64,000 nt of DNA from a virus (IMGVR_UViG_3300041583_000371:18992-82991), one strand, 5' to 3'. Shown: positions 14,632 through 64,000, numbered from the stretch's first letter. Numbers and translations are program-made. The notes: generated from the sequence alone by a model not told the origin.

Positions 14632-15518
14632 AACAATATCATATGCTACTGAAAGACATTTTAGAAAACGGTGAAAATGTAAGTGACAGAACAGGGACAG
14701 GAACCCGTACCTTATTCGGTCGTCAAATGCATTTTAATCTTGTAGATGGGTTTCCAGCGGTAACAACAAAAAAACTTGCATGGAAATCTGTTGTTGGTGA
14801 ATTGCTTTGGATGCTTGAAGGAAGCACAGATGAACGTAGGCTTGCCGAACTAACTTATGGTAAGCCCAGAAAAGATTTAGTTGGAAGAAATACAATTTGG
14901 ACTGCCAACGCAGATAATCAAGGTGTTGCGTTAGGATATGAAAATAACGATTCTAAAAAAGAGCTGGGGCCAATTTATGGGGAAATTTGGCGAAACTTTG
15001 ACTATTTCAGAGGATTAGAATGTGGTGTTGACCAAATACTGCAAATTATCGAACAGATAAAAGAGACACCAGATTCAAGGAGAATCATATTATCTGCTTG
15101 GAATCCTTTGTTAATTCCTGAAATGTCATTGCCGCCTTGTCACTACACCGCGCAATTTCGTGTGGTAAATGGCAAACTAAGTTGCATGATGACACAAAGA
15201 TCTGGTGATTTATTTTTAGGAATCCCGTTTAATATCGCAAGTTATGCTCTCTTGACACATATTATTGCTCGTGAATGTGGTTTGGAAGTAGGAAATTTTG
15301 TACATTCTATCGGTGATGCACACATATATAATGACCACTTTGATCAGGTAAAAGAACAACTGCTAAGAGAAGAATATGCTTTACCTACACTTGAAATTGG
15401 TGTAGAGTTTAACCTTATGGATAGACTACGCAATGGCTTTAAACTCGAAGATTGCTCTCTATTTACTCTTAAAAATTATGTACATCATCCCACAATAAAA
15501 GCACCAATGGCAGTATAA
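14628..15518 (+). CDS. td: thymidylate synthase ThyA
   Basis: DRTGTGT, LPPCH, QRSGDLFLGIPFN, DAHIY. Confidence 0.96.
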   Translation: MKQYHMLLKDILENGENVSDRTGTGTRTLFGRQMHFNLVDGFPAVTTKKLAWKSVVGELLWMLEGSTDERRLAELTYGKPRKDLVGRNTIWTANADNQGVALGYENNDSKKELGPIYGEIWRNFDYFRGLECGVDQILQIIEQIKETPDSRRIILSAWNPLLIPEMSLPPCHYTAQFRVVNGKLSCMMTQRSGDLFLGIPFNIASYALLTHIIARECGLEVGNFVHSIGDAHIYNDHFDQVKEQLLREEYALPTLEIGVEFNLMDRLRNGFKLEDCSLFTLKNYVHHPTIKAPMAV

Positions 15519-15560
15519 ACACTAAACTTGGTATTTTGACATGTATAAATACACATCCCA

Positions 15561-15576
15561 ACACAACATATAGCAA
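15561..15576 (+). promoter_or_regulatory. NrdR-box-like site upstream of nrdA (late promoter at 15544-15551)
   Basis: ACACAACATATAGCAA versus consensus acaCwAtATaTwGtgt. Confidence 0.45.
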
Positions 15577-15621
15577 ATATATATTTGCTATTAAAACAAT
15601 TTTTAACACTAAGAGGTACTG

Positions 15622-17241
15622 ATGACTATAATTATTAAACGCGATGGGCGCAAAGAGCAGTTAGATTTGAACAAAATACATACTGTTGTTGAATGGGCTT
15701 GTGACAAGATTACAGGGGTGTCTATTTCGGAAGTTGAACTGAAATCACAAATTCAATTTTATGCAGGTATTACGAGTGAAGAAATTCATGAAACTCTTAT
15801 CCGTTCAGCATCCGAATTAATTTCAGAAGAAACCCCTAACTATCAATTTGTTGCATCAAAGTTGATTAACTTTGATCTTCGTAAGCGAGCATATGGGCAT
15901 TATGAGCCTTGGCATATCAAAGATATCGTAAAGCGAGGCGTTCAGAAAGGTTTTTATAACCCTGACTTACTTTCTGTATACAATGATGAAGATTGGGCGT
16001 TTATGGAGGGTGTCATAAATCACAATAGAGACTATGAAATTTCATATGCTGGTATGGTGCAGTTCAGGACCAAGTATCTCGTAAAAAATAAATCGACTAT
16101 GGAGTATTTCGAAACACCGCAAATTGCATACATGTTGATTGCTGCTAGTGGTTGTATTTCTGAAGAAAGTAAAGATAGACTTAAATTTATCAAGAAAATT
16201 TATAACCATCTTTCCAAGTTTGATTTTACACTGCCAACACCTATCATGGCAGGATTGCGGACTAATGTAAAACAATTTTCATCTTGTACTTTAATTGATG
16301 CTGGTGATTCACTTGATTCGATCAATGCTGCCGCATCGGCTATTGTAAAATATGCAGCCAATAAAGCAGGCATTGGTTTGAATATCGGAAGAATTCGTGC
16401 GGTTGGTTCCCCAATTCGTAATGGTGAAGTTACCCATACTGGTGTAGTGCCATTTATAAAATATTTCAATGCTGCGCTAAAAAGCTGTAATCAAGGTGGG
16501 GTTCGTAATTCAAGCGGCACATTTTATTACCCAATGTGGCATTATGAATATGAAGATATGATTGTACTAAAAAATAACAAAGGTACAGAAGACACGCGAG
16601 TTAGATCAGTAGATTATGGCGTTCAACTTAACAGATTTTTGATTCAAAGGCTAATCGAAGATGGCAACATTACTCTGTTTTCGCCCAACGATGTACCAGA
16701 CCTTTATGAGGCTTTTTTCACAAATCAAGAATTGTTTGGAGAACTTTATGTCAAATATGAAAATGACAGTAGTATTCGTAAAAAAACAATAACTGCTATT
16801 GAGGCGTTCAGTGTCCTTGCGCAAGAAAGAGTTGAGACAGGTCGCATCTATATTCAATTTGTTGACAACACAAACGAGCAAGGTATGTTAGGCGAAGAAA
16901 ATCCAGTATATATGAGTAATTTGTGTTTAGTCGGTGATACCAAAATTGATGTGATTTGTGATAATCAACCATTTAAAATTAATATAGAAGACTTGGGTAA
17001 TTTTATGCGCAAGTATGATAACGTGGTGGTCAAGTCTTACAATACGGATACGAAGGCTGTTGAATATATGCCTATTGAAGCGTTTGGTCTCACAAACCCC
17101 GACGCAGATTTATATCAAGTAACTACCGATGATGATACACATAGTGTAGTGTGTACGAGCGATCATTTATTCTGGACTGATAATAGAGGATATGTGGCAG
17201 CAATAGATTTGACTGAAGAAGATAGAATAAAAACATTATAG
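15622..17241 (+). CDS. nrdA: class Ia ribonucleotide reductase alpha, N-terminal fragment fused to split intein N-part
   Basis: ATP-cone start IIKRDG; PTP.M, QFSSC, NQGG.R; ends MSNL|CLVGDT intein. Confidence 0.93.
   Translation: MTIIIKRDGRKEQLDLNKIHTVVEWACDKITGVSISEVELKSQIQFYAGITSEEIHETLIRSASELISEETPNYQFVASKLINFDLRKRAYGHYEPWHIKDIVKRGVQKGFYNPDLLSVYNDEDWAFMEGVINHNRDYEISYAGMVQFRTKYLVKNKSTMEYFETPQIAYMLIAASGCISEESKDRLKFIKKIYNHLSKFDFTLPTPIMAGLRTNVKQFSSCTLIDAGDSLDSINAAASAIVKYAANKAGIGLNIGRIRAVGSPIRNGEVTHTGVVPFIKYFNAALKSCNQGGVRNSSGTFYYPMWHYEYEDMIVLKNNKGTEDTRVRSVDYGVQLNRFLIQRLIEDGNITLFSPNDVPDLYEAFFTNQELFGELYVKYENDSSIRKKTITAIEAFSVLAQERVETGRIYIQFVDNTNEQGMLGEENPVYMSNLCLVGDTKIDVICDNQPFKINIEDLGNFMRKYDNVVVKSYNTDTKAVEYMPIEAFGLTNPDADLYQVTTDDDTHSVVCTSDHLFWTDNRGYVAAIDLTEEDRIKTL
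16924..17238 (+). mobile_element. split intein N-fragment (IntN, ~105 aa)
   Basis: block A CLVGDTKI; block B CTSDHLF (TxxH); ends at stop without blocks F/G. Confidence 0.9.
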
Positions 17242-17252
17242 TACAATGAAAT

Positions 17253-17292
17253 ACCTCTTTGCATAAATAAAATTAGTTAAATGCAAAGAGGT
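17253..17292 (+). promoter_or_regulatory. RBS-sequestering hairpin with embedded late-promoter variant CATAAATA
   Basis: ACCTCTTTGCAT (17253-64) is the perfect reverse complement of ATGCAAAGAGGT (17281-92), which holds the SD. Confidence 0.75.
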
Positions 17293-17297
17293 GCTAC

Positions 17298-18287
17298 ATG
17301 AACTATCGTAAACTACATGACAAATTTATAAATTATTTTATAAATACCGCCCCTAAAGAAAGGTTAATGGCAAAAAATAATATAGACAAAAGGCTTGATA
17401 AAGAGAATTTATATGTGGAGATTCATCATATAATTCCTAAACATGATGGTGGGTGCGATTCGCCACATAATCTTGTTACTCTATTACCCGAAGAACACGT
17501 CTTCATACATAAGCTAAGATACAAGGCTTACGGTCAAAGAGGTGATATGCTTTCTGTTAGGTTTGTTCTTAATGGTATGAAAAGCAATGCTAGATTTAAT
17601 GTTGATGGGTCTAACATGCACCTTACTAAGTATATATTAGGCGGATATGCGTTCATAAAAAGTAATTCATCTGAATTCAGAAAAAAAGTTGGGTGGCATA
17701 CGCCAAATGGAGCTAAAAAAATATCCGAATCGAGGAAAGGCAATATGCCAGTGAAAGATGTTGATACTTTAAAAATTATAGGTTCAGTAAGTTGCCAACA
17801 CCCTAAAGTGATATCGGGTCAGTGGGTCCACCATAGTAAAGGTGTAAAATACACAGATGAAAGAAAATTATCTATGGTAAATGGTAGTGGGGATAAAAAT
17901 AATAACTATTCTGGTTATGATGATGACCAACTCATTTTAAACTTTATCGAAATATGCAATAAATTAGGATATATACCAGGTCATAAAACAGCAACAGATT
18001 TTGGGGTTGAAAATAATATATATTTTCCTAAGTCAATAAAAGATTTTAGGTTTGATGGAGATGGCTTTCGTGGTATGATACAAATAGTGGAAGAAAAAAC
18101 AGGTCTAAAATATGACCCATACTATACCAGAAGATCTGGTCGTGTGAAAATAATAAGCGGAAAACGTTGTTGGGTTACTGACGGCGTTAATAGCAAATCA
18201 ATCTCTTTTATTGATTTGAATGAATATAATCTAATAGGATGGAAAAAAGGAAGAACATTATATGGCAAAAGTAATAAAATTAAATAA
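17298..18287 (+). mobile_element. free-standing MobE-like HNH homing endonuclease
   Basis: EIHHIIPK.DGG.D...NLV.L...EH...H; C-terminal WVTDG..GWKKGR. Confidence 0.85.
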
Positions 18288-19341
18288 AAGAGCCCCAGTA
18301 TATGATATAACAGTAGCAGAAAATCATAACTTTTTTGCTAATGGCGTTTTAGTGCATAATTGCGCCGAAGTCGTACAGACCACAAAGCCAATGCAAAGTA
18401 TTAGTGATGTTGACGGACTAATATCATTGTGCACACTTGCTGCATATAATATGGGCAATATTAAAACGCCTGATGATTTTGAAAAACTTTCAAAAGTAGT
18501 TGTAAGGTTTTTAGATAATGTTTTGACATATCAGACTTATCTTCTACCATCCGCACTTTCATCAACATTGAAGTATCGTAACATTGGTATTGGAATATCG
18601 AATTTGGCATACTTTTTAGCCAAAAACAATTACAAATATACAGGCGAAGACACACCAAAATTCTTACATCCATATATGGAGGCAATGGGGTATTATACTA
18701 TTAAAGCGTCGGCTGAACTTGCCCAAGAAAGAGGTTCTTTTGATGCTTTTTCCACTACTAAATGGGCCAAAGGTAAATTGCCCATTGATACATATCGCAA
18801 AGCTGTTGATAGTATTGTAGAAAACGATTTGTTGCTTGACTGGAATGAATTACGCGAAATTACTAGCAAAGGCATGAGAAATGCTACAATACTGAGCTTG
18901 ATGCCTGTTGAAACTTCGAGTCAGTTGGTCAATGCTACTAATGGTGTTGAGCCGCCCCGTGGACTTATTTCTGTCAAGAATTCTAAGGATGGTTCTATGA
19001 AGCAAGTGGTCCCAGAGATTCAAAGGCTGAAAAATAAATATGATCTTTTGTGGGATCAAAAATCACCTACTGGTTATCTAAATATTATGGCCACGATACA
19101 AAAGTTTGTGGATCAATCTATTTCTACGAATACATCTTACAATCCCGAATTTTATCCAAGCAATGAAATTCCCCTTATGGTTATACTTGGTGATATGATT
19201 TATGCTTGTAAAATGGGAATTAAGACACTATACTATTGCAACACATATGATATGTCTGGTGAAGTAAAATTAGATGAGCCGCTATCTGAAAATGAAGTCA
19301 CAGACGGCGATGATGATTATTGTGAATCTTGCGTACTATAA
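18262..19341 (+). CDS. nrdA: split intein C-part (33 aa, 18262-18360) fused to nrdA C-terminal fragment
   Basis: VYDITV..NHNFFANGVLVHN|CAE; then LCTLA, MP.ETSS, NGVEP, DQSIS, KTLYY, terminal CESC. Confidence 0.93.
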   Translation: MAKVIKLNKRAPVYDITVAENHNFFANGVLVHNCAEVVQTTKPMQSISDVDGLISLCTLAAYNMGNIKTPDDFEKLSKVVVRFLDNVLTYQTYLLPSALSSTLKYRNIGIGISNLAYFLAKNNYKYTGEDTPKFLHPYMEAMGYYTIKASAELAQERGSFDAFSTTKWAKGKLPIDTYRKAVDSIVENDLLLDWNELREITSKGMRNATILSLMPVETSSQLVNATNGVEPPRGLISVKNSKDGSMKQVVPEIQRLKNKYDLLWDQKSPTGYLNIMATIQKFVDQSISTNTSYNPEFYPSNEIPLMVILGDMIYACKMGIKTLYYCNTYDMSGEVKLDEPLSENEVTDGDDDYCESCVL

Positions 19342-19363
19342 ATTTAAATAAAAGGAAAATATA

Positions 19364-20449
19364 ATGACACTAACAGTAGATTATACGGGCAGGGGGATGT
19401 TCCTTGATGGTTCTGTAGATATCGCAAGATACGATCAACCACAATTTCCTGCTCTTGATCGGTTTGTTAAACAACAAAGAGGATTCTTTTGGGTTCCAGA
19501 AGAAATCAATGACATCAATAAAGACAAAGAAGACTTTCGGAGTTTAACCGAGCATGAACAGCATATTTTTATTTCAAATTTGCTGCGTCAAACCCTTTTA
19601 GACAGTATTCAGGGACGCGCGCCTTCCGAAGTGTTTTCGCCAATTACCTCTGTACCTGAAGCAGAAATCTGGACACAGACTTGGGCATTTAGTGAAACTA
19701 TTCACTCTTACTCGTATACTTATATCATTCGCAATATATTTCCAAAACCAGATGAAATTTTTAGCAAAATGCCTAGTATCATGGAAATTGTAGATTGCTC
19801 AAATGACATTTCACATTATTATGACGATTTAGACAAATATAATAAATTAGTTTCTCTATATGGATATACCGATGGCCGAAACTTGCATGACCATAAAAAA
19901 CTGCTTTGGAAATGTATTATGTCAGTAAATATTCTCGAAGGCATTAGATTTTTTGTGTCTTTTGCATGTTCTTGGAATTTTGCCGAACGTAAACTTATGG
20001 AAGGCAATGCGAAAATTATTAAGTTGATTGCCAGAGATGAAAATCTACATTTAGGATCTACGCAATATATGTTAAGAGAGCTTGTACGTACTGATCCGGA
20101 ATTTGCGGATATTGCAAAAGAAACTGAACAAGAATGTATTGATATGTTCAAAGATGCAATTCTACAAGAAAAAGCATGGGCAAAATATCTATTCAAAGAA
20201 GGTTCTATGGTGGGCCTAAATGAAAATATTCTTTGTGATTATGTAGACTATATCGCAAAAGTTCGTATGAAAGCAGTAGGGCTTCCATGCGATATTGAAA
20301 TTTCGCAAAATCCACTACCTTGGACTTTGAAATGGATTGGCGGAAAAGAAATGCAGCCTGCGCCACAAGAAACAAATATAACATCTTATCGTATAGGTGG
20401 TATGAATACTGCGGTAGATAAAAGTGCTATGGGTAAATTTTCACTATAA
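19364..20449 (+). CDS. nrdB: ribonucleotide reductase beta subunit
   Basis: FFW.PEE, LDSIQGR, ETIHSYSY, EGIRFFVSF, RDENLH. Confidence 0.95.
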   Translation: MTLTVDYTGRGMFLDGSVDIARYDQPQFPALDRFVKQQRGFFWVPEEINDINKDKEDFRSLTEHEQHIFISNLLRQTLLDSIQGRAPSEVFSPITSVPEAEIWTQTWAFSETIHSYSYTYIIRNIFPKPDEIFSKMPSIMEIVDCSNDISHYYDDLDKYNKLVSLYGYTDGRNLHDHKKLLWKCIMSVNILEGIRFFVSFACSWNFAERKLMEGNAKIIKLIARDENLHLGSTQYMLRELVRTDPEFADIAKETEQECIDMFKDAILQEKAWAKYLFKEGSMVGLNENILCDYVDYIAKVRMKAVGLPCDIEISQNPLPWTLKWIGGKEMQPAPQETNITSYRIGGMNTAVDKSAMGKFSL

Positions 20450-33338: not shown

Positions 33339-34799
33339 ATGAAAATGACCAATGTACTATCTCTACTAACTGCAATTATCCGAACTGATAGCTATAAATT
33401 GAGCCAGTTCTTGCAGTATCCCCCAGATACTACCCGTATCAGTTCATATATCGAATCTCGCGGCGGTGAAAAAGAAAGTGTTTTCTTCGGCTTGCAAGCA
33501 TTCATTAAGCAGTATATGCTCACGCCAATCACACAAAAAGATATCAATATGGCGGAAAAGCTTGTGCTTGCACACGGGTTGCCATTCAATCGTGAAGGTT
33601 GGGAAATTATTGTCAACGAATATGACGGTATGCTACCACTTGAAATTGAAGCAGTGCCTGAAGGTACTGTTATGGAAACGCGAAATGTACAGGTTCAAGT
33701 TGTCAACACTGATCCTCGACTGTTTTGGTTGACCTCTTATATCGAGACTGCGATGCTGCGCGGCATTTGGTATCCTTCTACCGTCGCGACAAAAAGCCGT
33801 AAACTGAAAAAGATTATTGCGGCTGGATTGCATAAAACAAGCGATATTCCAGTAAATGATCAAATTCAGTTCAAATTGCACGACTTTGGCGCAAGAGGCG
33901 CTAGTAGCTCAGAATCTGCAATGCTTGGTGGAATGGCACACTTGACTAACTTTATGGGCACTGATACAGTAGAAGCACTTGTGGGTGCAATGGAATACTA
34001 TAATTCAGAAGTAGTGCCTGGGTTTAGTATCCCCGCTAGTGAGCATAGTACAATTTGTGGGTGGGGAGGACCAGAAGGCGAAGTTGTTGCATTTGAAAAT
34101 ATGATAGTCAAATTTGCTGGGGAAGGCAAGATTTACGCTTGTGTAAGCGACAGTTATGATATCTATGCCGCGTGTCGAGAGTTGTGGGGTGGTGTTCTGA
34201 AAGATAAAGTAATTTCATCAGGTGGAACTTTGGTAGTTCGTCCTGACTCTGGCGATCCAATGACAGTACCAATCGAAGTATTGAATATTCTTGCCGAAAA
34301 GTTTGGCTTTGCGGTAAACAGCAAAGGATATAAAGTTTTGCCTTCTTATATTCGTGTAATTCAAGGCGATGGCCTCAATGAAGAAACCCTTCCTATCCTG
34401 ATTAAAAACGTGATAGATGCTGGGTTTTCACTTGACAATATCGCATTTGGTATGGGTGGCGGATTGCTACAAGCTTGGAATAGAGACACACTGAAGTATG
34501 CAATGAAAGCAAGTGCTCGTGAGGATACCAATGGTATTTGGCATAATGTATTCAAAGACCCAATTTCAGACAAAGGCAAGACTTCTAAGAAAGGTCTTTT
34601 GGGGCTTGTGTATGACTGTGGTGTGGGTAGCTGTAGTTATAAAACAGTACCTAAGAATGTTGCAACAGAAAAAGGAAACCTGCTTCGTACAGTGTATCGC
34701 AATGGTGCTCTCTTAATTGAAGATACATTTGATGAAGTTAGAGCTCGGGCCGGACTAAAAGTCGAAGAGTATTCACCTCAGATTATAGAAAGATATTAA
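33339..34799 (+). CDS. nadV: nicotinamide phosphoribosyltransferase (Nampt/NadV)
   Basis: TDSYK, LHDFGARG, SIPASEHS, VSDSYD, VRPDSGDP, IQGDG, FGMGGGLLQ, SKKG. Confidence 0.93.
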   Translation: MKMTNVLSLLTAIIRTDSYKLSQFLQYPPDTTRISSYIESRGGEKESVFFGLQAFIKQYMLTPITQKDINMAEKLVLAHGLPFNREGWEIIVNEYDGMLPLEIEAVPEGTVMETRNVQVQVVNTDPRLFWLTSYIETAMLRGIWYPSTVATKSRKLKKIIAAGLHKTSDIPVNDQIQFKLHDFGARGASSSESAMLGGMAHLTNFMGTDTVEALVGAMEYYNSEVVPGFSIPASEHSTICGWGGPEGEVVAFENMIVKFAGEGKIYACVSDSYDIYAACRELWGGVLKDKVISSGGTLVVRPDSGDPMTVPIEVLNILAEKFGFAVNSKGYKVLPSYIRVIQGDGLNEETLPILIKNVIDAGFSLDNIAFGMGGGLLQAWNRDTLKYAMKASAREDTNGIWHNVFKDPISDKGKTSKKGLLGLVYDCGVGSCSYKTVPKNVATEKGNLLRTVYRNGALLIEDTFDEVRARAGLKVEEYSPQIIERY

Positions 34800-35800: not shown

Positions 35801-36669
35801 GTGGCAATGATGATAAACTTTGATGATGAGGAAAGCAATGCAGCCGATGCAAAACAAGATCAACTCGAACAAAATAGAAATTTCATGCTAAATCTTGATG
35901 AAAGTGAAAGCAATGCCGCCGATGCTATTCTTGAGCCAAAAGATTATTTTGCCGACTTAAAAAGCAAAATAACTGATGTTCAGTACGATCAGCTAGAACA
36001 GAATCGTGGGTTCATTGGCAAAGAAATTGAAAAGGCAAATCGTCTAGGCCAAAAGAATCTTACCCATAAAGCATCTTATATGTGGGAAATTCTCGAAAAA
36101 GAACTAATTTTACATGCTATGGGGCTTACTAAGTATGTGCATCGTCAAGATGTCATATTGCTTATTGACAAAGTGAAACCAAAAAACTCTGTAAAAATAG
36201 TTGAACTTGAAAATTATCCTCGGTCAATTCCAGACGCGAATATGGAAGACATCATCAAAGCTCGTGAGCTTGGACTTTTTGATGTTTTACTTATTCTATA
36301 TACAGACCTTACCGACGAAGAAGTAAACACGCCTGCGCAAAAGCAATTTGCTGCCAGAAAAAAAGATCCCATTGTATTCGGCATGTTTATTAATGATAAG
36401 ATCAATCTAAAACATGATCGTCTATACTTTATTACTGACTGGGAAGATGAGTTTTGTGAACTTACATTTACAAAGATGATTGACAAGATGTCTGAAATGG
36501 GTATTAAAAACCCTGAAAAAACATAACCATAGATGAAAATCACATCAATTCTATCGTAGCAATGTCAAAACAGGAAGTTTCTGCGGTTAAACTAGAGGAA
36601 AAGTTTGTAGTATCAACACCAGAGAAAAAGAAATTCTTCTCGAAGCTAAAGGCATATCTCTTTAAATGA
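35801..36669 (+). CDS. phage hypothetical protein; C-terminus probably frameshifted at A-run 36516-36521
   Basis: EL..YPR.IP, DPI.FG, DW.DE.C.LT; adding one A extends the frame to TGA 36667-69 overlapping the next ATG. Confidence 0.55.
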
Positions 36670-63132: not shown

Positions 63133-64000
63133 ATGAGTAGAAAAATTCTGGTCCCACCAAAGCAAGAGCTAATAGATATCTATGCCAAAGAAGGAAATAC
63201 CATTTCTTCTTTGGCAAGACTATACAACACCTCTAACCCTACAATGAGAAGTTGGCTTGTAAAATATGAAATATATCTAAAAGACCAAAAACAAGCATCA
63301 ACAGAGGCCAACAATAGGCATAAAATACATTCAAAACCAACAAAAGAAGTATTGACAACCCTATATGAAGAATCTACTATAAAGTCGCTATCATCATATT
63401 ACAACGTGAGTCTTGCAACTATATATGAATGGCTATTAGAATATGACATACAAACGCGAACATTGTCTGAATCAACAAAAAAATGCAAGCAAATTCAATA
63501 TGAAAATATTCAGTTCACAAAAGAATATCTCGTATCGCAGTATGATACCAAACAGTCTATATTAGTGTTGGCAGAAAAACTTGGCGTATCAAAAACACAT
63601 ATTAGAAAACAACTTTTGATAAATGGCATAAAAATATTGCCCATCGATCCATCTTGGAGAAGCAAAGCCGAAATATCACTTTATGAATATCTCATAGAAA
63701 ACTTCCCCAATGACAACTGGAAAAACAATGATAAGTCTATAATACAACCATTTGAATTAGATATTGTAAATGTTGACAAGAAGATTGCTATTGAATATTG
63801 TGGCCTGTATTGGCATTCAGAAGCATCAAGTGGAAAGAAAAAAAACTACCACAAGAATAAATATCTGATGTGCAAAGAAAAGGGATATAAACTTGTAACC
63901 ATACTCGAGTCTGATAATATGGAAAAAGTCAAAAATCTACTGCTAAAACTCTTTGGAAAAACTATAAAAATCGGCGCAAGAAATACTACTTTGAAAGCAC
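63133..64000 (+). mobile_element. Hef-like homing endonuclease with N-terminal HTH-like repeats (truncated by window end)
   Basis: manual translation: three LA..Y/LGVS..T...WL-type repeats, then SKAE, ELDI, IAIEYCGLYWHS, YH.NK...C..KG..L. Confidence 0.7.

Follow-up and report, generated by a model that had tools for sequence, protein, structure and literature searches.

Three same-strand ORFs occupy this part of the window (the whole 64,000-nt stretch of DNA analysed), encoding the N-terminal half of NrdA fused to the N-terminal half of a split intein (IntN), an HNH endonuclease, and the C-terminal intein half (IntC) fused to the C-terminal half of NrdA; all coordinates were rechecked. ORF1 (15622-17241, + strand) encodes 539 aa, comprising NrdA residues 1-434 and the 105-aa IntN, followed by a TAG stop. 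Its N-extein (15622..16923, +), which ends in YMSNL, matches Pfam PF03477, PF00317 and PF02867 as well as NCBIfam NF006578, the Pfam domains being an ATP-cone, an RNR all-alpha domain and an RNR barrel whose match ends at profile position 212 of 523. IntN (16924..17241, +, TAG stop included) corresponds to ORF1 residues 435-539 and is recognized by TIGR01445 intein_Nterm. The HNH gene, ORF2 (17298..18287, +; 329 aa), is free-standing, lies in a reading frame different from those of ORF1 and ORF3, and matches Pfam HNH PF01844 and phrog_655. ORF3 (18262-19341, +; 359 aa) starts 26 nt upstream of the ORF2 stop and consists of the 33-aa IntC (18262..18360, +; TIGR01443 intein_Cterm), which thereby overlaps the HNH gene by 26 nt, and the NrdA C-extein (18361..19341, +; 326 aa plus stop; PF02867 and NF006578), which begins with CAE. 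Downstream lies nrdB (19364..20449, +; Pfam PF00268, E 7.2e-46), encoding the RNR small subunit that would partner the spliced NrdA. A sequence-only reading had described the three ORFs in this form, as an nrdA fractured at its catalytic cysteine by a split intein whose halves are separated by an HNH gene; translations and profile searches reproduced every coordinate and feature, and the structural reading proved right. All or part of the stretch is contained in 24 sequencing runs, mostly labelled salt lake metagenome and none of them RNA. A search of the phage collection for near-identical DNA returned no match.

The two adjacent same-strand NrdA ORFs jointly cover the whole host protein, as in a fractured gene. 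Against the NCBIfam class Ia NrdA model NF006578 (761 positions), ORF1 residues 3-436 align with positions 6-440 and ORF3 residues 33-355 with positions 438-755, so that the junction is seamless at 438|439, the position of the thiyl-radical cysteine; the Pfam barrel PF02867 is likewise divided, with profile positions 1-212 in ORF1 and 212-522 in ORF3. The NF006578 scores are 604.3 bits for ORF1 and 383.5 bits for ORF3, each half alone falling below the equivalog cut-off of 813 bits. At the junction, ORF1 reads SNL|C and ORF3 reads HN|CAE. Translation and profile alignment identify C34 of ORF3 as both the +1 nucleophile and the thiyl-radical cysteine (C439 in the E. coli numbering of Crona 2010, PMC3045599), and the N-L-C-x-E finger-loop motif arises solely across the splice junction (SNL + CAE). 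Together with the ATP-cone, the all-alpha domain and the 10-stranded barrel, this motif identifies the protein as a class Ia NrdA. No second RNR large subunit was found on the 83-kb contig, which represents about 43% of the genome, so a second RNR may sit elsewhere in the phage genome.

Split intein halves and their relatives

The first NrdA ORF ends C-terminally in IntN, and the second begins with IntC. IntN (105 aa, net charge -11) begins with CLVGDT, contains CTSDH and ends in KTL; it scores 25.0 bits against TIGR01445 intein_Nterm (cut-off 24.5; ORF1 residues 435-519) and gave no match to Pfam Intein_splicing at E <= 0.01. IntC, the first 33 aa of ORF3, ends in GVLVHN ahead of CAE and carries a net charge of +4 in its first 12 aa; it scores 41.3 bits against TIGR01443 intein_Cterm (cut-off 15.6; ORF3 residues 12-34), matches the C-termini of solved mini-inteins in the PDB (E 1e-4), and aligns with Pfam Intein_splicing profile positions 125-155 at 28.8 bits, below that model's cut-off of 35.8. 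The residues of class-1 splicing are all present, namely C435 (Cys1), T512/H515, D15, H32-N33 and C34, and they are conserved in two alignments (A1 and A2). We take T512/H515 to be the T-x-x-H of block B, D15 and H22 to be block F, and H32-N33 to be block G.

A model of the IntN(430-539)/IntC(1-40) complex reached an ipSAE of 0.64 against 0.01 for the best of three controls, with three runs sharing at least 94% of contacts, partner pLDDT of at least 69, and 183-186 confident contacts; of 78 solved complexes, 51 attain the mark applied, as do 2 of 108 mismatched pairs. IntN and IntC are thus predicted to form one HINT fold, a result that may rest on likeness to known structures, since split-intein complexes have already been solved.

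A word-indexed protein search with residues 425-539 returned only the protein itself and one 88%-identical relative, and wider IntN relatives came from a sensitive search of cluster representatives (best 150). Among these best 150, a single representative is more than 50% identical to IntN and 111 stop at the protein C-terminus; the RNR barrel ends at Pfam profile position 212-214 in 37 of the 38 that were scanned from those 111. The best solved relative is the NrdJ-1 split intein (PDB 8ubs, 9omb), which matches IntN residues 17-102 (8ubs_A, E 3.7e-13) with 31 identical residues by hand count in an alignment of 86-88 residues; its IntC matches the present IntC weakly (E 0.038). NrdJ-1 is split at the same point and agrees in charge polarity, IntN negative and IntC positive, whereas its host is a class II RNR and its insertion lies one residue further C-terminal (Dassa 2009, PMC2677866). 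NrdJ-1 ranks among the exceptionally fast splicers (Pinto et al. 2020). The pair described here adds a natural split intein, distinct in sequence, to the fast NrdJ-1 lineage; the sequence-only reading had proposed that it may be a new orthogonal split intein, and it is a candidate for an extra, possibly orthogonal, ligation tool.

Contiguous inteins are also found at this site. In Vibrio phage YC the insertion point is identical (SNL|CFTGDT ... VLVHN|CLE), and the products of this phage and of Pectobacterium phage DU_PP_I are single polypeptides of 1103 or 1088 aa with an in-frame endonuclease domain. These domains are unrelated to ORF2 (best BLASTP E 0.58 and 1.0), leaving an origin of ORF2 as the leftover of a full intein's own endonuclease domain unsupported for these relatives.

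The HNH endonuclease and its predicted control region

The free-standing gene between the halves encodes an endonuclease by both profile searches, ORF2 matching Pfam HNH PF01844 (E 7.8e-5, 23.2 bits; cut-off 21.4) and the phrog_655 'homing endonuclease' family (E 8.4e-17). Residues H43, H44, N58, H67 and H71 are invariant in a further alignment (A4), preserving the His-His...Asn...His pattern of the HNH core. ORF2 is modular: an N-terminal MobE-like HNH core, 34% identical over residues 1-109 (E 8e-8) to the product of a gene annotated mobE in Aeromonas phage Ah1, is followed by a central module common to other HNH members and by a C-terminal module at about aa 198-285. This last module is common to GIY-YIG endonucleases at the same site (E 2e-11 and 2e-12). 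Pfam found no family in the C-terminal half of ORF2, and two GIY-YIG relatives yielded matches that stay under the cut-offs, HNH_repeat in one (E 0.011) and NUMOD3 in the other (E 0.086); the shared module is therefore left without a name.

Upstream of the HNH gene lies an RNA hairpin (17252..17293, +) in which 17252-17264 pair with 17281-17293 to form a 13-bp stem around a 16-nt loop; its folding energy is -21.4 kcal/mol (z -5.2), and 0 of 200 shuffles fold as well. The HNH Shine-Dalgarno sequence GAGG (17288-17291) lies within the 3' arm, 6 nt before the ATG, and the 5' arm and loop are spanned by CATAAATA (17262..17269, +), one base off the T4/Aeh1-type late promoter element TATAAATA, which is the late promoter element of Aeh1 (Dassa 2009, PMC2677866). 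Read by eye, the likely Shine-Dalgarno sequence of ORF3 is AGGAAG (18248..18253, +), which belongs to the 3'-terminal part of the HNH gene and is separated by 8 nt from the ORF3 ATG (18262). The locus thereby combines a hairpin ahead of the endonuclease, often accompanied by TATAAATA in fractured genes, with an endonuclease 3' end that overlaps the downstream ORF. As a word, TATAAATA occurs 11 times in the window, where 8.8 matches are expected, and so shows no enrichment; a sigma-70 scan gave 20 promoter-like sites against 20.5 expected, and a terminator scan gave 1 against 2.1 expected.

This regulatory design is conserved. Among 23 distinct HNH-type loci, [TC]ATAAATA occurs in the IntN-HNH spacer of 16, the HNH Shine-Dalgarno region is mostly paired in 19, and the HNH gene end overlaps the IntC ORF in 18. 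Start codons in the underlying 37-locus survey were chosen automatically and are clearly wrong in a few cases (L039, L043 and L057).

Related and published loci

Yersinia phage vB_YenM_TG1 (KP202158, Tevenvirinae; YenMTG1_233 to _231) has the same gene order, frd-td-nrdA'(IntN)-HNH-(IntC)'nrdA, and its junctions, SNL|CL and LVHN|CAE, show the same residues as those described here, with an IntC of 33 aa in both. The TG1 HNH protein and ORF2 share 44% identity over residues 1-206 (E 3e-50); the TG1 IntN is only 31% identical to the present one. Both loci have a hairpin with the late-promoter design and an HNH gene overlapping the nrdA-C ORF, the TG1 hairpin having a 12-bp stem of unrelated sequence that also contains the Shine-Dalgarno sequence and a perfect TATAAATA. 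TG1 has an additional 519-aa ORF ahead of nrdB. In the TG1 record, the region is annotated as two 'alpha subunit' CDSs plus an HNH gene with the intein unmentioned, and a literature search found no paper mentioning both vB_YenM_TG1 and 'intein'. For annotation, paired 'RNR alpha subunit' CDSs around an HNH gene, as in TG1, are better read as one trans-spliced gene than as pseudogenes.

IMG/VR contains 51 loci with ORF2 relatives; in 42 of them an intein half (IntN, IntC or both) belonging to an RNR alpha gene flanks the ORF2 relative. The same split is kept in the 23 distinct HNH-type loci at NrdA identities of 38-57%. The HNH-type form is thus common, being already present in those 42 loci and, in GenBank, in one cultured T4-like phage, TG1. 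The unknown 323-aa ORF of phage KP13-7, considered as a possible relative of ORF2, proved unrelated.

Aeromonas phage Aeh1 carries a comparable arrangement, nrdA-a/mobE/nrdA-b, reportedly described by Friedrich in 2007, in which a T4-like nrdA is likewise split by an HNH (MobE-family) gene overlapping the downstream half. Its mobE, as proposed here for ORF2, has a late promoter and a hairpin sequestering the ribosome site. Aeh1 differs in that its NrdA is described as having no intein and undergoing no splicing (Crona 2010, PMC3045599), which agrees with the statement in the sequence-only reading that this nrdA is split by mobE without an intein. In the same account, the Aeh1 break falls after the C439 equivalent, Cys-431 lying within NrdA-a, whereas the present break precedes the cysteine, and the Aeh1 tails are of opposite polarity, basic on the N-half and acidic on the C-half, and act as non-covalent interaction domains (PMC3045599).

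Dassa, London, Stoddard, Schueler-Furman and Pietrokovski 2009 (PMC2677866) described seven fractured NrdA loci, NrdA-1 to NrdA-7, from GOS metagenomes, in line with the earlier background claim that fractured genes with split inteins and free-standing endonucleases are known from phage metagenomes. These loci share with the present one the host gene, an insertion 'directly N-terminal to the thiyl radical active site', a free-standing endonuclease gene flanked by the halves of a split intein, of which IntN is negative and IntC positive, a hairpin before the endonuclease, often with TATAAATA, and an endonuclease 3' end overlapping the downstream ORF (PMC2677866). The same paper links the hairpin, TATAAATA and the overlap to the Aeh1 mobE control experiments. 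NrdA-1 to NrdA-7 come from cyanophage-like marine and freshwater reads, whereas the present contig comes mostly from salt lake metagenome runs; furthermore, their endonucleases are GIY-YIG or Vsr-like by the published description, in contrast to the MobE-type HNH enzyme here. HNH endonucleases of MobE type were predicted to be able to fracture genes, but were not observed among the loci of that report (PMC2677866). The arrangement is real but well precedented, since a 2009 publication already reported its site, design and regulatory elements, and it leaves the accepted view of inteins and RNR as it was. The two departures from the published loci are the MobE-like HNH nuclease and the C-terminal module in common with the GIY-YIG enzymes of the site. 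The former fills the gap predicted in 2009, indicating that a gene can be fractured at a split intein by an HNH endonuclease.

Proposed trans-splicing and homing, and alternatives

We consider it highly likely that the locus is a 'fractured gene' as Dassa et al. 2009 use the term, in which the class Ia nrdA of an uncultured large phage has been broken just before the radical-cysteine codon by a class-1 split intein and an HNH homing-endonuclease gene, working as proposed below. The split intein very probably stitches the two NrdA proteins into one RNR large subunit. That active RNR here needs protein trans-splicing, as the sequence-only reading had suggested, is computationally well supported by intact splicing residues, scores above the cut-offs of both TIGR models, homology to NrdJ-1, the predicted IntN-IntC interface, the failure of the Rfam search to find an RNA-level alternative, and the absence of a second RNR large subunit from the contig.

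Splicing, the timing of expression, cleavage and homing, as we infer them, would proceed as follows. The frd-td-nrdA'-HNH-'nrdA-nrdB block would be read through as a single early/middle transcript, on which ORF1 and ORF3 would use their own ribosome sites while the HNH ribosome site stays locked inside the 13-bp hairpin. The 105-aa IntN, which is acidic, and the 33-aa IntC, basic at its N-terminus, would assemble into the HINT fold, Cys435 would form a thioester, Cys34 of ORF3 (the future radical cysteine) would attack it, and Asn33 would cyclise, yielding a 760-aa NrdA with SNL-CAE restored. A late transcript beginning at CATAAATA, inside the hairpin, would not include the 5' arm, which would free the HNH ribosome site and allow the endonuclease to be made. 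This enzyme would then cut the element-free nrdA of co-infecting relatives, and repair would copy the whole cassette into them.

Other explanations of the two-piece gene fit the evidence less well. It is improbable that the NrdA pieces simply assemble non-covalently, although the two-piece NrdA of Aeh1 is fully active when joined by oppositely charged tails (Crona 2010, PMC3045599) and the intein halves here also carry opposite charges: every class-1 catalytic residue is retained here, in TG1 and in other loci, which would not be expected of a mere clamp. Moreover, the present break falls directly before the radical cysteine, so that if the chains stayed unspliced the active-site loop would contain about 140 aa of intein; Aeh1 NrdA is broken at another place, its C439 equivalent being part of NrdA-a (PMC3045599). 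Very improbable is a decaying gene, with nrdA destroyed by the insertion and the phage using the host RNR or an RNR beyond the contig. Both halves are full-length open frames scoring 604 and 383 bits against the class Ia model, an intact nrdB adjoins them, and maintenance of the split across the 23 HNH-type loci at 38-57% NrdA identity points to purifying selection on both halves; these observations weigh against the precedent of the multiply interrupted nrdA of Campylobacter phages, read as degenerating by Dwivedi et al. 2013, and against the room for another RNR left by a contig about 43% complete.

An artefact, in which the stop at 17239 is an assembly error within a contiguous intein, or a group I intron that removes the HNH region from the mRNA, is exceedingly improbable. 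From 17239 to the start of ORF3 at 18262 the nrdA frame is interrupted by another 30 stops, and the HNH gene occupies a different frame; the identical 539-aa ORF1 is recorded on 6 contigs, and both this stop and the 56-nt spacer recur in L017, a second IMG/VR contig. Phages TG1 and KP13-7 have their stop at the identical alignment column, as do L008, L010, L012, L013 and L014 judging from the ORF ends. The presence of the identical ORF1 on six contigs and the later in-frame stops together speak strongly against a sequencing error, which would have undone the sequence-only reading. Reads of four DNA runs (X5, X6, X12 and X13) leave some room for an artefact, X5 giving no contig and the others short contigs, none spanning 17239; the joined, element-free form of nrdA is absent from these short contigs of X6, X12 and X13, which do not reach across that position. 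As for RNA-level splicing, which had been named as another way of joining the halves, a search of 15400-19600 yielded no group I intron or other Rfam family at E <= 1, and the protein-level intein blocks are located exactly at the ORF ends.

Within the fractured-gene reading, cleavage of the element-free allele by ORF2 and its homing would be consistent with the placement of 42 of the 51 family loci at one RNR alpha site. The C-terminal module common to the HNH and GIY-YIG endonucleases suggests a nuclease swap. Tentatively, ORF2 could be a chimera recording such an exchange, in which the homing site stayed fixed while a MobE-type HNH core was joined to the C-terminal DNA-recognition module of the GIY-YIG enzymes at the RNR thiyl-cysteine split-intein site; one module would then aim two unrelated nucleases at one target, and the split intein and endonuclease would move as a unit between class I RNR subclasses. 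If this holds, the intein pair would be a sequence-distinct relative of the ultrafast NrdJ-1, with a native Cys+1 and only SNL/CAE as flanks. The shared module at one site would offer a clean natural system for studying the exchange of nuclease and targeting parts in homing endonucleases.

Layout and junction of the split nrdA

Three ORFs on one strand make up the split nrdA locus. ORF1 (15622-17241, +; 539 aa) encodes an ATP-cone, the RNR all-alpha domain and an RNR barrel whose Pfam match ends at profile position 212 of 523, and ORF3 (18262-19341, +; 359 aa) continues the barrel from profile position 212 to 522. Between them, in a different frame, lies ORF2 (17298-18287, +; 329 aa), which matches Pfam HNH above the cut-off (E 7.8e-5) and the PHROG family phrog_655, 'homing endonuclease'. 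The final 105 residues of ORF1 constitute the N-terminal intein half (IntN), beginning with CLVGDT, including CTSDH, ending at a TAG stop and carrying a net charge of -11. The first 33 residues of ORF3 form the C-terminal half (IntC), which has a basic N-terminus (+4 over 12 residues) and ends in GVLVHN, followed by CAE.

Both halves are recognized by curated NCBI models, intein_Nterm scoring 25.0 bits against a cut-off of 24.5 (ORF1 435-519) and intein_Cterm 41.3 bits against 15.6 (ORF3 12-34). Because a class Ia NrdA model of 761 positions covers 6-440 on ORF1 and 438-755 on ORF3, excision of the intein parts leaves NrdA gapless; if ligated, the product would comprise 434 + 326 = 760 residues. 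The Cys directly after the intein is the thiyl-radical Cys, numbered C439 in E. coli in the available text of Crona 2010 (PMC3045599). The sequence-only reading had described this order of NrdA(1-434), IntN, HNH gene and IntC, with the break at the catalytic Cys; its coordinates and anatomy are confirmed by the ORF calls, Pfam and the NCBI intein models, and the position of the break by the seamless class Ia match across ORF1 and ORF3.

The closest solved structure to IntN is the NrdJ-1 intein (8ubs, E 3.7e-13), with 31 identical residues by our own count in an 86-88-residue alignment, while for IntC several mini-inteins of solved structure give matches in their C-terminal strands, at about E 1e-4. 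The predicted complex of IntN (430-539) with IntC (1-40) reached an ipSAE of 0.64 versus 0.01 in the best control, with at least 94% contact agreement among three runs and a partner pLDDT of at least 69. Of 78 solved complexes, 51 attain this ipSAE mark, as do 2 of 108 mismatched pairs; since split-intein complexes already have solved structures, passing it shows a likeness of the modeled pair to those complexes and is no proof of binding.

The gene order around the split is frd, td, nrdA', HNH, 'nrdA, nrdB. The source is an IMG/VR contig of 82,991 bases from an uncultured virus, estimated by CheckV to be 43% complete, whose further genes (primase, Dda-like helicase, DNA and RNA ligases, NAMPT, PhoH and endolysin) are those of a large lytic phage. 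The nicotinamide phosphoribosyltransferase gene, an auxiliary NAD-salvage gene, occupies 33339-34796 (+) of the window (phrog_448, E 1.6e-150). An ORF at 35801-36523 (+), surrounded by small unannotated ORFs, matches the PHROG transposase family phrog_10081 (E 1.1e-38). A second homing-endonuclease-like ORF (phrog_3339, E 2.7e-23; phrog_559 HNH) extends over 63133-63999 (+) and is still open at the final full codon of the window, no stop having been reached.

Fractured genes and the HNH form in other phages

The available text of Dassa et al. 2009 (PMC2677866) describes fractured genes at 27 loci. Seven of these, NrdA-1 to NrdA-7, are NrdA loci, in which the split intein lies 'directly N-terminal to the ... 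thiyl radical active site', as it does here. The NrdA-2 locus combines a negative IntN with a positive IntC, the same charges as here, and 15 loci have an endonuclease gene that runs into the following ORF, as ORF2 does into ORF3. Our locus shows every feature that defines the 'fractured gene' class and is therefore a member of this known class; what sets it apart is its nuclease type, HNH, and an intein of the NrdJ-1 lineage with a distinct sequence. The endonucleases in the same text are GIY-YIG or Vsr-like, in contrast to the HNH enzyme here, and HNH is mentioned there as a type that 'could fracture genes'. As known forms, the available part of a 2025 preprint on actinobacteriophage inteins gives in-frame HNH and split inteins accompanied by Vsr-like endonucleases. 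In the literature searched, supplements excluded, we came across no account of a fractured gene of the HNH type that carries a split intein.

Yersinia phage TG1, a cultured T4 relative, shares the layout and synteny of this locus, with junctions SNL/CL and LVHN/CAE, an IntC of 33 aa and an HNH protein 44% identical to ORF2 over residues 1-206 (E 3e-50). The TG1 record carries no intein annotation, and our literature search found no paper mentioning both TG1 and intein. Between nrdA-C and nrdB, TG1 also has a 519-aa hypothetical ORF (L004:5535-7094), at the position that mobE occupies in T4.

Scanning IMG/VR with an HNH alignment returned 51 loci. IntN and/or IntC flank the HNH gene in 42 of them, some cut at a contig end, a number that takes in another contig of the same phage, the TG1 genome itself and many duplicates; in the other 9 the match is limited to a short HNH core with no RNR or intein flank. 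Both flanks are present in 37 loci, representing 23 distinct HNH proteins. The host genes fall into two RNR alpha subclasses, an ATP-cone NrdA type and a shorter type without ATP-cone, and the split point (NL/C ... HN/C) is the same in both. In two HNH-type loci (L039:3444-5515 and L055:3273-5341), the NrdA C-extein match lies about 1 kb downstream of IntC and starts only at query residues 19 and 14, respectively; this delay suggests a second insertion in the C-half.

A HMMER search with IntN retrieved 369 cluster representatives at E <= 1e-3. Among the best 150 of these, 111 were counted as split-like because the IntN match ends near the protein C-terminus (within 8 residues), many being fragments with the N-terminal end missing; P0003 alone exceeded 50% identity to IntN (63%). 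Full NrdA N-half geometry was found in 17 split-like representatives, with the barrel ending at profile position 212/213 in all 17, and likewise in 20 of 21 more picked by length, the single exception being P0088, of class II type. A smaller IMG/VR scan with the IntN alignment yielded eight loci: three with GIY-YIG between the halves, two with HNH, one split and endonuclease-free, one contiguous mini-intein and one cut NrdJ-like gene.

The endonuclease-free NrdA split intein of the same family (contig L013:1-2383), with just a few bases between the stop of IntN and the start of the IntC ORF, looks like the 'endonuclease lost' stage of the model in the available text of Dassa et al. 2009 (PMC2677866). 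Its C-half is broken once more (ORFs 1023-1349 and 1334-2383), and a frameshift or an additional insertion is therefore suspected. In Klebsiella phage KP13-7 (L001:3001-8284), nrdA is broken into four pieces and a GIY-YIG gene occupies the site of ORF2; the order is piece 1, HNH_3 gene, piece 2 + IntN, GIY-YIG, IntC + piece 3, 323-aa ORF, piece 4. Among the breaks scanned, the middle one alone has recognizable intein halves, and most of these ORFs are annotated as hypothetical protein in the KP13-7 record.

Putative control region and composition of the HNH gene

The 56-nt spacer 5' of the HNH gene contains a 13-bp hairpin (17252-17264 paired with 17281-17293) with a minimum free energy of -21.4 kcal/mol (z -5.2), and 0 of 200 shuffles were as stable. 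The 3' arm holds the Shine-Dalgarno sequence GAGG, 6 nt 5' of the HNH ATG, while the top of the 5' arm carries CATAAATA (17262-17269, +), a one-base variant of the T4/Aeh1-type late promoter element TATAAATA. The TG1 spacer repeats this hairpin design, its stem being unrelated in sequence and its TATAAATA perfect; thus structure is conserved between the two, but sequence is not. A late-promoter motif was present in the spacer of all six loci first inspected (three HNH, three GIY-YIG), and in each, part of the stretch directly 5' of the start codon is paired in the fold, only weakly in L010. Across the 23 distinct HNH loci, whose start codons were assigned by an automatic procedure, wrongly in a few cases, the motif occurs in 16, the Shine-Dalgarno region is mostly paired in 19, and the ORF overlap is found in 18.

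The available text of Dassa et al. 2009 (PMC2677866) finds 15 of 16 loci to have a hairpin 5' of the endonuclease, as here, ten of these hairpins containing TATAAATA. Citing Gibb and Edgell, it explains the control of Aeh1 mobE by early read-through transcripts that hide the ribosome site and late transcripts that begin inside the hairpin, exposing it. The spacer design in our locus matches this arrangement and, by analogy, the HNH gene may be expressed late in this phage. Taken as a word, TATAAATA shows no enrichment in the window (11 exact copies, including those at 2766, 6431, 11590, 15544 and 38595). The coding (+) strand carries ten of the 11 copies, and an ORF start follows at least five copies at a distance of 13-78 nt, with nrdA ORF1 beginning 78 nt after one of these; this strand bias and ORF proximity are compatible with T4-type late promoters.

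The N-terminal core of ORF2 resembles MobE-type genes of T4-like phages. Towards its C-terminus (about residues 198-285), ORF2 shows significant similarity to the C-terminal regions of GIY-YIG endonucleases found at this site in other phages (E 2e-11 versus L014, E 2e-12 versus L012). The N-terminal nuclease domains are unrelated, HNH in ORF2 and GIY-YIG in L012 and L014. The simplest reading of these alignments is that a putative DNA-recognition module is common to both, with the nuclease heads exchanged.

Proposed mechanism and competing explanations

We consider it very probable that the two NrdA halves would be translated separately, that IntN and IntC would associate with electrostatic assistance, that class-1 trans-splicing would recreate the NLCxE loop, and that the HNH homing endonuclease, expressed late under the gating of the hairpin, would spread the cassette. 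The interpretation in the sequence-only reading is supported as far as computation reaches, by sequence comparison and modeling. An alternative in which a non-covalent clamp joins the halves recalls the nrdA of Aeh1, which in the available text of Crona 2010 (PMC3045599) is held by charged tails; unlike the break here, that split is without an intein and lies elsewhere in the barrel, and we regard a clamp as very unlikely at this locus. That the two ORFs are remains of a decaying nrdA appears very unlikely.

The split could also be an artefact, or be undone by RNA splicing, and either is highly improbable. The nrdA frame holds 30 more stops from 17239 to the ORF3 start and the HNH gene lies in another frame, which rules out a contiguous intein hidden by one error. 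The 539-aa ORF1 protein is on record, identical, from six contigs, and a second IMG/VR contig (L017) has an identical stop and spacer; together with the further stops, these records contradict an erroneous stop at 17239. Four sequencing runs yielded no contig that spans that stop. An Rfam search of the split nrdA region matched no family, leaving an RNA-level intron, and thus RNA-level joining of the halves, unsupported. Contigs from one run labeled as an ice metagenome (X13) match 18320-18369, the conserved IntC block only, at below 90% likeness, and run on into unrelated sequence; one loose end appears, in our own reading, to encode a similar IntC block. These contigs are probably other inteins of the same family from other phages.
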